A DNA stretch of 64,000 nt, from NCBI GenBank assembly GCA_965226495.1, contig OZ245365.1, positions 1,632,001-1,696,000 on the forward strand, written 5' to 3'. Positions 27,304 to 52,811 of the stretch are shown piece by piece. Under the pieces are notes generated by a model, which was not told where the DNA came from, searched no databases, and worked only from the letters and a program-made list of their open reading frames with translations. The number at the start of each line of letters is the position of its first letter. Position 1 is the stretch's first letter. Source of the DNA: Candidatus Marinacidobacterales bacterium (GTDB lineage: Bacteria; Acidobacteriota; Vicinamibacteria; Marinacidobacterales; DATDRI01). Position numbers and translations under genes: made by a program.

Positions 27304-27378
27304 AGGCGCGTAGCTCAGTGGGAGAGCGCTACCTTGACGTGGTAGATGTCGGGGGTTCAAATCCCTCCGCGCCTACCA
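27304..27378 (+). tRNA. tRNA-Val(GAC)
   Basis: Acceptor AGGCGCG/CGCGCCT, D arm, anticodon stem CTACC/GGTAG with loop TTGACGT, GTTCAAAT T loop, encoded CCA. Confidence 0.97.
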
Positions 27379-31739: not shown

Positions 31740-31744
31740 CGAGT

Positions 31745-31917
31745 TGGCCCTGCTTTGTTCGTGATGGGAACATATATTTTGAGCCAACATCTATTTGAAC
31801 GGGTTGTCGAACTCTCACCATGCGCAAGCCTCCTCGCGAGGAAGCCTTAAGTGAGGGGGAGATGACCCACCTAGAAACGAGGTTCAAATAGGATTTCCAC
31901 ACGGCAAAGCGGGGCTA
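31745..31917 (+). ncRNA. ssrS: 6S RNA
   Basis: About 170-nt rod: ends GCCCTGCTTTG / CAAAGCGGGGC pair, TTTGAGCC / GGTTCAAA pair, central bubble; canonical position after zapA. Confidence 0.85.
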
Positions 31918-32114
31918 CTTCAAAACCCGTCTCCCTCCAAGACATACGTTTTTTGAAGCCGCTCCATTCGGATCAAGCCGGGTCGTGAATACTTGAGAAG
32001 CGCGTCTTCACCCGGGACGGAGCAAGCTCACCGTCATCGGTGAAACCCGCTCGGTCGACTTCGCGAAGTGACGCAACTCCTCCTTGAATCTCGCCATCGA
32101 GCCCCCTTCGTCCT

Positions 32115-49571: not shown

Positions 49572-49859
49572 GTGCTGGCCTCTGCTAAAGGGAAAACGGT
49601 GCTGTCGTCATCCTAGGGCAGGCGAATCGGCCTGTCAAAACACCGGGAAGAGATGTGTTCTCAGTGGAAGCGGCTTGGTCGTCCGAAGTCTCTTCGACCT
49701 GACGATTTGAAAAGCCGACGCCCGCGCCCTACAATCGCCCAAAGGGGTCTCGCGGCGATATCCACATATCCAGACCCACCGGACGCGGAGTATCCCGGAC
49801 GGGAGACAACGCATCATGTCCAACACGAATGGGGTCAGCTACATGAACAACGACACCCA

Positions 49860-49934
49860 CGCTGCATTATCCAATACACGAGCCGGCTTGGATGTGCTAT
49901 CGAATAATCCAGATCTAGATACTTACTGTTGGGC
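49860..49934 (+). other. Probable attI-like integron site (core GTTGGGC at 49928)
   Basis: GTTGGGC is the exact complement of the R'' GCCCAAC of the first attC; upstream DNA is AT-rich and lacks an attC hairpin. Confidence 0.55.
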
Positions 49935-49952
49935 GGATTCGTGAGGTCTTAG

Positions 49953-50504
49953 GTGGTAGGCCCTGACAGCCGTGTTGCGATTTGGAACACCTACTTCAAG
50001 CTCGCCTGGGAGCAGGCCAAGGCGGTGCACGAGTTATCGACCGGTCACTCAAGTAAGGACACCTTCAGGCCCTGGGGTGGCACGCTTCCCGATGGCGAGC
50101 CGGAAGTATTGGCGGTGGTCGTGTTCTGTACCCTAGCGATCGAAGCGCGCGCCAATCACCTGATCGAGGAACTAATCGAGGCTGGTAAGATATCCAAAGA
50201 TACTGGGCGGGCAGCGCGTTGGTTGCCACCAAGAGAGAGGTGGTTCCTCCTCCCAGCGCTCGCGGGTTCCAGCGCTCAACTTGACTCGACCGCTGGTCCT
50301 CACCAAGCTGTGGCTCAAGTTTGCGAGTTACGTAACGATTTCCTGCACGTCAACTACGCAGCTCTTTCTGCAAAGCTGCCGACCGCCACCACAGTGCTGA
50401 GCTACTTTCAACGTGTCGTGGAGGCGTTTGAGGATATGAACGTGTTGCTGGGACGTATCGAGTCGCCGCGCGCGGAAGTTCTTCGGCTCGGGCGGTTCAA
50501 ATGA
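49953..50504 (+). CDS. Gene cassette 1: HEPN-like protein
   Basis: Helical protein with LAIEA and RNDFLH (Rx4H); bounded by GTTGGGC and attC. Confidence 0.7.
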   Translation: MVGPDSRVAIWNTYFKLAWEQAKAVHELSTGHSSKDTFRPWGGTLPDGEPEVLAVVVFCTLAIEARANHLIEELIEAGKISKDTGRAARWLPPRERWFLLPALAGSSAQLDSTAGPHQAVAQVCELRNDFLHVNYAALSAKLPTATTVLSYFQRVVEAFEDMNVLLGRIESPRAEVLRLGRFK

Positions 50505-50511
50505 GGCCACC

Positions 50512-50646
50512 GCCCAACACGCCGTTGGAGCGGACGATCGGCGCCAGCGCTGCTTGGCTGGTGCGCTTCGGCAGGTATTGTCGTAGCATGTTATTAAAGG
50601 AAGGGCTAAGGGTGGCACCGCTCGCCGCTCAACGGCCCTGTTGAGT
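50512..50646 (+). other. attC site (MITE inserted at its R' GTT)
   Basis: R'' GCCCAAC; L'' GTTG[G]AGCGG[A]CGA pairs with L' TCGCCGCTCAAC leaving two extrahelical bases; R' GTT at 50640. Confidence 0.88.
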
Positions 50647-50761
50647 CTGTAGGAAAACCTCAAAGGGGGTGAATAGATGACCCTATTTCGTCACGAGAGG
50701 CCGCCTTCGAGTGCGAGATCAGGCCATCTAGAGCAGGGCTTCAGGGTTTTCCTACAGACTC
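50643..50761. mobile_element. 119-bp MITE with perfect 17-bp TIRs and GTT target duplication
   Basis: GAGTCTGTAGGAAAACC ... GGTTTTCCTACAGACTC flanked by GTT (50640-42) and GTT (50762-64); no ORF. Confidence 0.88.
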
Positions 50762-50848
50762 GTTAGGCCGACGGAAATCTGCAGACTTGTTGTTTGGCGA
50801 GGACGGTCGTTGCGCAAGCTGTCGCTCTAGCTCTAATCTTAGGGAACG

Positions 50849-51780
50849 ATGACAACATACAAGCGCCAGCACACCGTTCCGGTTAGCTATCAGCGCAGCT
50901 TCTCGACCGATCGTGCAAAGAGGAATCGCAGCTCGAAGGTCTACAAGTTCTCCAAGGCTGATGCCTGTTGGACCGGACCGGTTCGTGCGGAGAAGCAGTG
51001 CTGGGCCTCCGACTTCTACTCAGCGGCTGATCGCGAAAAGAGCGAGAAGGAGCTCCAAGTCATCGAAGACGACTACGCGAAGTGGAGCGAGAAGGTCTAC
51101 CAGCAAGGCTTCGCTTCTCTTACCGAAGAAGAGGTCTACAACCTTGCGCTCACCGTGCTGGCGCTCTTCGCACGCAACCCGGTTCACCGACACACGGGTG
51201 TCCTCCCGGAGGAGCGGAATCGCGTAGCAGCCCGATACGAGGCAGTCAGCGTTCTGGTAGCCGCAGAGTACGCGGAAGCAATTAAGGAGGGTGTTTCCGA
51301 GGAAATCCGCCGCGAGCGTCAGGACGAGATTCAGCGTCGCTGGTCACTGCATGAAGTTCGCGCCGCTGCCGGCAGCTCCTTCATCTACACGGACTCACCG
51401 GTGGTCCCCTGTTTTATTGGCACGACCGGCGCTCGCACTCTTGCGTTTATCATGCCGTTCGACGCAGAAGCGGTGTGGATTTACGCGGACGAGGGCGTTC
51501 ATGTCGGCGCCACCACAGCGACCGAGGATGATGTCGATAAGATCAACAGCTCTTGGCCGCCCACGCGATCGACGTAGTGTTTGCGAGCAGCGAAATCGAT
51601 CCAGGTCCAATCCGAGCGGGATTTGCTTCGCCCTTCGACATCAAGAGCGAGATCAACACGGAGGGATGGAGTTTTGAACCCTATCGCCTCACTGACATCC
51701 CTTGGCTTTCTGTTGCGCCAGGTACACCGGGCTCACCTCAGTCGAGAGTTCGCGTTAAGGCGCGTTCTAAGCTTGTGTGA
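50849..51780 (+). pseudogene. Gene cassette 2: DUF4238-like protein, apparently frameshifted near 51551
   Basis: KRQHTVP.SYQRSF N-terminus and FIYTDSPV; DVDKINS continues as LAAHAIDVVFAS in frame 51553. Confidence 0.65.
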
Positions 51781-51796: not shown

Positions 51797-52811
51797 TGTA
51801 GTGTCCTGAGTCTTTGGTTACACACTGAGTCCTGTTTTCTGTCTAAGGCGTTCATACGGGGTCTGGCCGTCTAAGCCTCCATGAGGTCGATGGTAGTTAT
51901 AGTACTTCTCCCACTCGCTCAGTTTTGCATTGAATAGGTGAATGTCGTCGCTGACCCCGTCCTTGTCTAGAAGCTGGTAAAACTCTTGGTCGTCGGTGCG
52001 ATGAGAGCGTTCGACCTTGCCGTTCAATCGAGGGGTCCGGGGCGTGATGTATACGTGGGATATGTCTTTGTCCTGAAGGTGCCAGTGAAACCTCGACTGG
52101 AATTCAGCACCGTTGTCGGTTTGTATGACGTGAATTCTGAAGGGTAATCGGTGGATGACTTCATCGATGAACTGAATGGCCGTCTTTTGACTGCAGGCAT
52201 CGAATATCTTCAAGACCCGTATCCTTGTACAGTCGTCTACGGCCGTGAACTGATAGAGCCTTCTCCGGGTGCCTGGTATTCTCTCCAGGAACTTTACATC
52301 GACCTGCAGCCTATGGCCAGGCTGGCGTTTCTCGTACCGCTTCCAGCGCTTGGTGTGAGCGCGATGCTTCTGGTTTGCGGGCAATCGACTTAGGCCATTG
52401 CGTTCCAGGACTCGGTGAACCGTGGAGCCGGCGATTTTTATCTGATGATATCGATGCAGATAGGAAGCGATTCTCGCCGGCCCAAAGTGGTAGTTCTGCC
52501 GCAAGTAGAGAATCTTGCTGACCGTCTCTTTGGGAGTCTCGTGGGGGCAATTCTTGGGCCTTCTTGGTCTATCACAGAGGCTTGCTTCACCATGGGCCGC
52601 GTACCGAGAAAGCCATTTGTAGAAAGTCGTCCGCGAGATCCCGAAATATCTACAAGTTTTTGAGACATTGTGAGTTGTTTCGCCTGCGTGACGAATGACC
52701 TTCATCCGCCAATTTACCAGTCGCTGTCGTTCCGTCTTCTTCATAGTTGCACTGCCTCTCTGTAGCGCTTAAAAGAAGACTAGTGTGTCACCTATGTCCT
52801 TGGGTTTTACA
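51797..52811 (-). mobile_element. IS481-family insertion sequence (1015 bp)
   Basis: TGT...ACA ends with imperfect IRs TGTAGTGTCCTGAGTCTTTGGTTACAC / TGTAAAACCCAAGGACATAGGTGACAC; single transposase ORF. Confidence 0.9.
51818..52744 (-). CDS. IS481-family transposase
   Basis: CRYFGISRTTFYKW HTH; QVDVK, AVDDCTR, TDNGAEF, NGKVER and YNYHRPH DDE core. Confidence 0.93.
   Translation of the reverse strand: MKKTERQRLVNWRMKVIRHAGETTHNVSKTCRYFGISRTTFYKWLSRYAAHGEASLCDRPRRPKNCPHETPKETVSKILYLRQNYHFGPARIASYLHRYHQIKIAGSTVHRVLERNGLSRLPANQKHRAHTKRWKRYEKRQPGHRLQVDVKFLERIPGTRRRLYQFTAVDDCTRIRVLKIFDACSQKTAIQFIDEVIHRLPFRIHVIQTDNGAEFQSRFHWHLQDKDISHVYITPRTPRLNGKVERSHRTDDQEFYQLLDKDGVSDDIHLFNAKLSEWEKYYNYHRPHGGLDGQTPYERLRQKTGLSV

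Follow-up and report, generated by a model that had tools for sequence, protein, structure and literature searches.

A 119-bp miniature element and IS1182-family insertion sequences at the GTT triplet of integron attC sites

We describe a 119-bp element from the genome of a Candidatus Marinacidobacterales bacterium (Acidobacteriota; contig OZ245365.1) which we conclude with high confidence to be a miniature inverted-repeat transposable element (MITE) of a clade of IS1182-family insertion sequences (IS), whose DDE transposase places them in a single orientation within the R' core of attC sites of integrons, with duplication of the core triplet GTT. The element was found in a stretch of 64,000 nucleotides (the window), which corresponds to positions 1632001-1696000 of the source genome, a single contig of 6.34 Mb (G000 hereafter). 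What we observed directly are the ends of the elements, their attC context and constant orientation, the duplication of 3 bp, and the recurrence of this pattern across the family; from these observations we infer how the target is recognized and whether orientation stems from the mechanism of insertion or from later selection. Integrons rank among the main routes for the acquisition and rearrangement of genes in bacteria, and a DDE transposon family with abundant MITEs aimed at attC can break up cassette arrays, give rise to attCs that stand alone or in clusters, and change the expression of cassettes.

Results and discussion

The window element and the attC site it occupies

The element is bounded by terminal inverted repeats (TIRs) of 17 nt that are 100% complementary and 85 nt apart (repeat finder; coordinates in Table 1). 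A GTT triplet was read on each side of it, the whole running ...ggccct GTT, then GAGTCTGTAGGAAAACC ... GGTTTTCCTACAGACTC, then GTT aggccg. The list of open reading frames (ORFs) holds none of ≥50 aa inside the element, in which one 18-codon ATG frame is present. The element is a near-perfect hairpin, and the region 50505-50775, taken as single-stranded DNA, folds with a z-score of -4.06 that was equalled by 0 of 200 shuffles. Without mismatches, the 17-mer TIR occurs in the 64-kb window just at the two ends of the element; with ≤3 mismatches, 3 matches were obtained in the window vs 0.10 expected, and 0 of 100 shuffles reached 3. The element combines four traits of a MITE, namely TIRs matching over 17/17 nt, a GTT/GTT duplication, a small size without a transposase gene, and ends shared with an autonomous IS. 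A preliminary description, made from the letters of the window, had noted an ORF-less element of this length with perfect 17-bp TIRs between the GTTs of an attC R' end, which is correct as written, and its interpretation as a MITE at the attC crossover triplet is borne out by the TIRs, the GTT/GTT duplication, and the attC context.

The site in which the element sits displays the complementary pair of an attC, an R'' box of the form RYYYAAC and an R' box of the form GTTRRRY, and an inner L''/L' stem with an imperfect hairpin was found both by folding and with R1, one of two covariance models that we built from 19 eye-picked junction flanks of related IS (R1 includes six IS bases, while the stricter R2 ends at the GTT). 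R1 yielded a sole match in the 64-kb window, at 50510-50648 (22.6 bits, E 0.0068), and no Rfam family was detected at the site. When the element and one GTT are deleted, the sequence becomes ...ggccctGTTAGGC, the ending of 3 of the 5 array attCs of the same genome. By manual count, the restored GTTAGGC forms 6 Watson-Crick pairs with R'' GCCCAAC (6/7 positions), and the hybrid core left by the insertion, GTTGAGT, still matches GTTRRRY and forms 5 Watson-Crick pairs and 1 G-T pair with R''.

A single intI gene above the curated cut-off was identified in G000 (1724731-1725672, + strand; 463 bits vs a cut-off of 265), with attC-pattern repeats to its right on the same strand at 1726471-565, 1733200-288, 1735740-763, 1739012-096, and 1742736-801. 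Both arms of the window attC are 93-96% identical to these array repeats (e.g., 1726471-1726565 and 1733200-1733288), and since the restored ending is shared as well, the window site is a member of the G000 attC family. With a position 42 kb to the left of intI, it is not part of the array beside this gene and is, as judged from its sequence, a genuine but solitary attC. The layout of the G000 integron itself (1724731-1744764) is co-directional, with intI and cassettes on the same strand and the attCs downstream, the usual layout being divergent.

Autonomous relatives of the IS1182 family

The first 15 bases of the MITE match three near-exact ends within 6 kb of the intI gene of a sister-genus genome (G001), where 14 of these 15 bases are those of the end of a 1764-bp IS (family consensus GAGNCTGTAGNAAAA). 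This IS has the ends GAGTCTGTAGAAAAACC... and ...GGTTTTTCTACAGACTC and a 507-aa ORF, and it stands 2.3 kb from intI, preceded by attC...aactGTT and followed by GTTATACG right before the next cassette ORF (right flank GTTATAC). A second copy begins at another attC, ending in ...cgctGTT, and has lost its right end. The transposase matches the IS1182 model NF033551 (NCBIfam) with 284.8 bits vs a cut-off of 270, the G001 protein alone having been tested, and contains the Pfam domains DUF772, DDE_Tnp_1, and DDE_Tnp_1_6. Of the two families suggested by the preliminary description for the ends of the element, IS1182 and IS5, it is thus IS1182 that applies, and the G001 element at an attC GTT is the autonomous transposase with the same ends that it had proposed to look for. 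A lone exact 15-nt end on G001 contig C9 (L049 10226), with no partner and no preceding GTT, is probably a remnant.

Relatives of this transposase are numerous: 7916 of 8000 scored candidates had E ≤ 1e-30, and the top 120 are 59-99% identical to it. A scan of one genome per species returned 587 coding places for such relatives, and all IS figures given here rest on the best 80, which correspond to 79 loci with transposases 50-70% identical to the G001 protein. These loci span at least six phyla, with records titled Acidobacteriota, Gammaproteobacteria, delta-proteobacterial groups, Nitrospirota, Omnitrophota, Bacillota, and others; many of the loci considered in this study are metagenome-bin sequences. 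Both ends were identified in 75 of the 79 loci, as GA[GA]NCTGT.G.A.AA and its complement 1726-1871 bp apart, and the other four have one end cut off. IS1182-family elements measure ~1.3-1.95 kb and carry inverted repeats by ISfinder figures, and the length and inverted ends of these 75 IS are typical of that size range.

The triplets flanking the 75 complete IS were GTT/GTT in 72 cases, the others being CAT/CAT (L102), TTT/TTT (L123), and GTT/GTC (L108). Because all IS loci were oriented by the transposase gene, the presence of GTT and never of AAC indicates that the IS points one way relative to its target, the attC being upstream with respect to the direction of the transposase. The same GTT...GTT arrangement surrounds a more distant relative (42% identical) on a Pseudoalteromonas piscicida chromid.

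A family of MITEs with the same ends

Metagenomes were scanned for pairs of family ends separated by 75-105 bases, which yielded at least 119 stretches; our counts come from 80 loci, which hold 82 elements of 107-133 bp in size classes near 108, 119, and 128 bp. Exact GTT/GTT duplications flank 24 of these elements and AAC/AAC, the same triplet on the other strand, flank 22; one is flanked by CAA/CAA and one reaches a contig edge. The remaining 34 have no exact duplication, including 19 with GTT or AAC on one side only. A further type was recognized among the MITE-sized elements, comprising 16 elements (including L132, L138, L140, L146, L165, L174, L180, L193, L198, L206, and L208) that share the inner end motif, mostly start and end with GAGA...TCTC, and lie in AT-rich DNA with neither GTT duplication nor attC match; these probably represent a separate family. 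The CAT, TTT, and CAA duplications across the IS and MITE sets imply that the triplet is duplicated target DNA rather than a part of the element. Four locus pairs were the same place assembled twice, and deduplication left 43 MITE and 63 IS sites, i.e., 106 distinct GTT-flanked sites. With GTT duplicated at 72/75 complete IS and 46/82 MITE-sized elements, the earlier proposal that an IS family and its MITEs target the attC GTT is upheld, and apart from a few instructive exceptions no copies were encountered that would have spoken against it, i.e., copies in random positions or lacking GTT.

An element of this kind could also be no transposon at all, but a tiny ORF-less hairpin cassette placed by the integron integrase (IntI), whose recombination between the G and the TT of the triplet would leave the same GTT...GTT pattern; the near-perfect hairpin of the window element fits such a cassette. 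Against this stand the 1.7-1.9-kb elements that have the same ends and encode a DDE transposase, the duplication of other triplets (CAT, TTT, and CAA) at non-attC sites, and the at least 11 IS copies in a genome without intI. Moreover, the ends of the element do not themselves form an RYYYAAC...GTTRRRY pair, and we give the cassette explanation very little credence.

Copies of the window MITE

Within G000, the MITE is single-copy, and when the whole genome was searched for copies of its end with an inverted counterpart at a distance of up to 3.5 kb, the MITE itself was the sole result. The IS1182-like genes of G000 are only 25-26% identical to the G001 transposase, and because the genome is without a cognate transposase the window MITE is an orphan, which may have been mobilized in the past or have come together with its attC. 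Three other copies of this MITE type were recovered. G001 has an 82% identical copy with GTT on both sides and an upstream flank resembling the G001 array attCs, metagenome contig L141 a 95% identical copy preceded by a G000-type attC, and L154 a 72-75% identical copy at a contig edge. All four copies point the same way with respect to the GTT/attC side, and they are associated with different attCs and unrelated downstream DNA. Likewise, in two runs from two public studies (X15 and X17), the identical MITE follows a different attC end and precedes different downstream DNA. No contig of the public runs skips the MITE, an observation in which contigs cannot reveal the absence of an empty site.

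The distribution of the window MITE is narrow. It was detected in 1/7 other genomes of the taxonomic family and 2/54 others of the order, one of these a match of merely 19 nt at E 0.007, and a phylum sample of 400 other genomes returned one 31-nt match only (E 8.5e-4). The MITE used as a DNA query had no match in plasmids, and a metagenome scan with its conserved core gave 0 matches.

A single copy in a genome that lacks the cognate transposase, along with the four metagenome locus pairs that proved to be one locus each assembled twice, might be taken to mean that one ancient insertion has been inherited or shuffled with its cassette, without any repeated targeting. The 106 distinct sites that remain after deduplication have unrelated flanks, however, and the four window-type copies differ both in their attCs and in their downstream DNA, which leaves this the least probable of the explanations that we considered.

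Insertion targets resemble attC sites

The attC pattern is visible by eye in many IS flanks, e.g., at L127 (GCCTAAC ... GCGGCTTAACTCAAGC GTT). RNAalifold predicted no pairs for the 19 seed flanks; with a fixed-column structure, 65.5% of the cells in the seed alignment were paired vs 56.8% in shuffled alignments (0/500 as high) and 28-49% with the partners slid. Applied to the 79 IS loci, R2 returned 79 matches, 78 of them on the transposase strand and 0 inside an IS. Among these, 41 lie off the junction at cassette-like spacing, 23 of which have E ≤ 0.01 (in 18 loci). At the junctions of the 56 loci outside the seed, R2 matches were obtained for 19 at E ≤ 1 and for 10 at E ≤ 0.01, and R1, aided by its own IS bases, matched 34/56 at E ≤ 1. 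As positive controls, R2 found the array attCs beside intI in G000 and G001, neither of which is in the seed, as well as the last attC of the class 1 integron of plasmid NC_021180.1, ~100 bp before qacE. The target at L127 (1323-1380, on a Hydrosulfovibrio ferrireducens contig) is ~95% identical to this plasmid attC, which is found in at least 5000 plasmid records and which we take to be an aadA-type attC; class 1 integron arrays with this attC, which is common on clinical plasmids, would thus fall within the sequence range of the clade.

The MITE loci provide an independent set, as none was used for R2 and R2 contains no element bases. Of the 46 GTT-duplicated MITEs, 30 have an R2 match that ends exactly at the element (E ≤ 0.01 in 20), and in each case this match is on the side expected from the triplet. 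Such matches were also obtained for 7 of the 19 one-sided cases, while the 16 elements of the other type had none. Plain cassette arrays make up several of the MITE contigs, e.g., L167, L190, and L164 with 10, 8, and 7 same-strand R2 matches, respectively.

The ten genomes behind IS loci that were searched for intI contained a gene above the cut-off in seven cases, a fragment in one, and none in two. In 6/10 genomes, an IS copy lies 0.6-16 kb from intI: ~0.6 kb for L072, 0.7 for L076, 4.1 for L051, 4.8 for L079, 11.6 for L120, and 15.8 for L065, where distances in multi-contig genomes assume that contig numbers of the genome search equal record names. Further IS copies in the same genomes are far from intI (L070, L071, L074, and L075), as is the window MITE. 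Other scores were less discriminating. Energy-based scoring of restored sites placed 15/62 targets below the 5th percentile of 285 control GTTR sites, a poor separation because the score favors long segments, and a manual R-box/L-box score was weak (strict, 11/70 targets vs 12/423 controls; lax, 25/70 vs 44/423).

Target recognition and orientation

Across the 106 distinct sites, the target logo displays C at -1 in 95 and A at +1 in 92. Weaker signals follow the +1 A (G/T, G, C, the usual R' tail) and precede the triplet at -16 to -9, where GCCGSTTA corresponds to an L' box at a fixed distance from GTT. In one possible explanation, these elements would be ordinary IS and MITEs with a short C-GTT-A preference, the link to attC being a by-product since all attCs end in GTTR. 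The strongly conserved target positions are indeed just C-GTT-A, IS copies occur at ACGTTA in non-attC repeats of a Nitrospirota metagenome-assembled genome (MAG) without intI, and the strict model R2 calls an attC at just 19 of the 56 non-seed junctions. However, G000 holds 5044 CGTTA and 34015 YGTTR sites, and its MITE nevertheless lies in one of about ten attCs; C-GTT-A alone is thus insufficient for site choice. In G001, the left junction could be read for 3 elements, each of them located at an attC end, and the proximity of IS copies to intI in 6/10 genomes, the same-strand attC arrays in the flanks of IS and MITE loci, the constant orientation relative to attC, and the L'-box signal at a fixed distance from GTT likewise speak against a mere core preference, which we therefore consider unlikely in the extreme, if less so than the two explanations above.

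Related MITE pairs have the same sense relative to attC in 64 cases vs 8, although these pairs are not mutually independent. This suggests that orientation is fixed at insertion and not by selection on a gene. Overall, the IS1182 clade would appear to combine a short core sequence with a hairpin-prone context for targeting.

Several points weigh against targeting of attC by this clade. The Nitrospirota MAG, in which no intI was found (L080-L091, L111), has 11 IS loci in the ACGTTA loop of a 7-bp hairpin, and these are not attCs; L102, with its CAT duplication, also comes from a genome without intI. The stricter model R2 misses the window's own attC, probably due to the enlarged loop of this site, and 37/56 non-seed junctions at E ≤ 1. 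More generally, our home-made attC models are of limited sensitivity and miss long sites, and the share of true-attC targets is therefore poorly measured. The likeness between MITE and IS is confined to ~17 bp at each end, with no parent IS among the IS copies examined, and only the best 80 of the 587 transposase relatives were looked at.

The stem of the Nitrospirota hairpin covaries between copies, and the hairpin sits in ~190-bp repeats with long covarying terminal inverted repeats. These repeats form a structured family, which the IS treats like attC.

Consequences of insertion for the attC site

Building on these patterns, the transposase of the IS1182 clade would cut the two strands of the motif C-GTT-A with a stagger of 3 bases, on either side of GTT, and would locate this motif through the attC context, i.e., by the constant spacing of the L' box, by the tendency of the site to fold into a hairpin, or by both. 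Such an insertion would leave GTTRRR on the left and C-GTT-R on the right, and because the element starts with three purines, the core motif would be retained and could be struck again. The first three bases are purines in 75/75 IS, hence the GTTRRR at the left junction, while the seventh core base is C or T in just 20/75; on the right, the end of the element (...CTC) and the GTT next to it together restore C-GTT-R. At L073 (~2449-2470), a second element end (GAGGCTGTAGAAAAATCC) directly follows the right-hand GTT as a tandem insertion into the rebuilt core, so that the junction can be hit again.

Two consequences proposed in the preliminary description gained no support. It had suggested that the element hitch-hikes with the next cassette, and pairs of copies that are alike downstream only, which would be a sign of this, numbered 6 and were all confined to the repeat family of the one Nitrospirota MAG, a result that is not evidence against hitch-hiking. 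It had also suggested that the element supplies a promoter to this cassette, and a scan of 49800-51000 identified 0 sigma-70-like promoters (the scan covers no other promoter types); 0 terminators were found in the same interval.

A broader interpretation has a real chance of being right, albeit somewhat short of even. The IS1182 clade and its MITEs may form a third, DDE-type class of integron parasites, distributed over at least six phyla, that reads attC itself (C-GTT-A and shape) and lands on the triplet cut by IntI in cassette orientation. The GTTRRR core is rebuilt at every insertion, for which reason IntI may still use the hybrid site; the IS or MITE would in that case form the head of the following cassette and could be carried between integrons by IntI itself, as its cargo. 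The clade makes recombination of an insertion-bearing attC a testable question, and it offers a natural experiment in which a DDE transposase recognizes a recombination site that acts as folded single-stranded DNA. In addition, GTT followed by GAGNCTGTAG can serve as a marker for attC sites overlooked by current models.

Other features of the window

The features surrounding the element are listed in Table 1. No attC was found with R1 or R2 after the DUF4238 ORF.

Table 1 Features at and around the MITE-bearing attC (window coordinates).
Feature	Position	Strand	Remarks
Cassette-like ORF, 183 aa	49953..50504	+	Stops 8 bases before attC; 0 Pfam families
attC	50512..50642	+	R'' GCCCAAC at 50512-50518, then L'', loop, L', and left GTT at 50640-50642
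Loop patch, 43 bp	50546..50588	+	Matches an internal part of a multi-copy IS30-family element at 100% identity
MITE, 119 bp	50643..50761	+	TIRs at 50643-50659 and 50745-50761
Right GTT of the duplication and original R' tail	50762..50768	+	GTT at 50762-50764; together GTTAGGC
Downstream ORF, 242 aa	50849..51577	+	DUF4238
Transposase gene	51818..52744	-	Helix-turn-helix and rve integrase core, IS481/IS3-like match; unrelated to the MITE

In the IS30-family element, the sequence matched by the patch in the loop of the window attC falls in the 3' part of the transposase gene, antisense to it. In runs X1, X15, and X17, contigs pass directly from 50545 to 50585, omitting 39 bases (3 shared), and have the same attC and MITE without the patch, and the patch-less loop agrees with the consensus of the attC family of the host genome. 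The 39-bp insertion is either templated and specific to this strain or an assembly artefact. The IS30-family element itself is 1078 bp long and is present in G000 in 9-10 copies (e.g., 1133818-1134895), one of them inside the integron array (1736815-1737892). A 3-bp duplication flanks 7/7 complete copies, with TGT[TC][AT] two bases upstream of the triplet in 7/7, which suggests from sequence that this element may have a target preference of its own. Elsewhere in the window, a 6S RNA gene (31744-31919, 107.6 bits) and a tRNA gene (27304-27375) were detected, both unrelated to the MITE.

Comparison with known systems

The comparisons below draw on extracts of the cited papers. In the full-text literature searched, neither IS1182 elements nor MITEs were reported at the attC core, and a prior description is possible given that ISfinder, TnPedia, and subscription journals lie outside this search; the attC-targeting mobile elements found there were IS1111-attC elements and group II introns only. 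IS were present in 23% of complete integrons according to Cury et al. 2016 (PMC4889954), and transposases of the IS5, IS3, and IS110 families are among cassette-associated proteins, with no claim of targeting for IS5 and IS3 in the extract (PMC11089894).

Insertion in attC at one precise position and orientation is shared with the IS1111-attC group (ISKpn4, ISPst6, and ISPa21; IS110/IS1111 superfamily) (PMC11187229, PMC11089894). That group, however, has a DEDD transposase with a seekRNA guide, subterminal inverted repeats, and a circle intermediate (PMC11187229), whereas the present clade has a DDE transposase of the IS1182 family, true TIRs, a 3-bp GTT duplication, and MITE derivatives. The DEDD transposase, the subterminal repeats, and the lack of target duplication that characterize IS1111-attC elements are thus absent from the elements described here. 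The original papers on the IS1111-attC group are said to be those of Tetu & Holmes in 2008 and Post & Hall in 2009.

Group IIC-attC (and IIB) introns are likewise mobile elements found in attC in a fixed orientation (PMC3001079, PMC7923331), and one group II intron is present in the class 1 array of NC_021180.1. Unlike the present elements, these introns belong to the retroelements, encode a reverse transcriptase along with their ribozyme, and have neither inverted repeats nor target duplication; at the window site, no Rfam family was detected, and the element has no ORF of ≥50 aa.

Within the IS1182 family itself, IS1272 is reported to select inverted-repeat (stem-loop) targets by shape rather than sequence, and Siguier et al. 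noted palindrome targets for some members of the family, as reported in the same paper (PMC5678879). IS1272 differs in that the target stem-loop is replaced, without duplication, and its targets have no common sequence (PMC5678879), whereas the clade described here keeps the attC, cuts at one defined triplet with a 3-bp duplication, and has a conserved C-GTT-A core. Finally, the IS1202 family (ISAjo2 type) at pdif/dif sites provides a parallel in the form of DDE elements with TIRs, a short duplication, and one orientation, inserted at a fixed distance from a tyrosine-recombinase site (PMC10132070). These elements have a TnsB-like transposase, use an XerC/D site, generate a 5-bp duplication, and insert beside the crossover (PMC10132070), whereas the IS1182 clade and its MITEs insert in the crossover itself.

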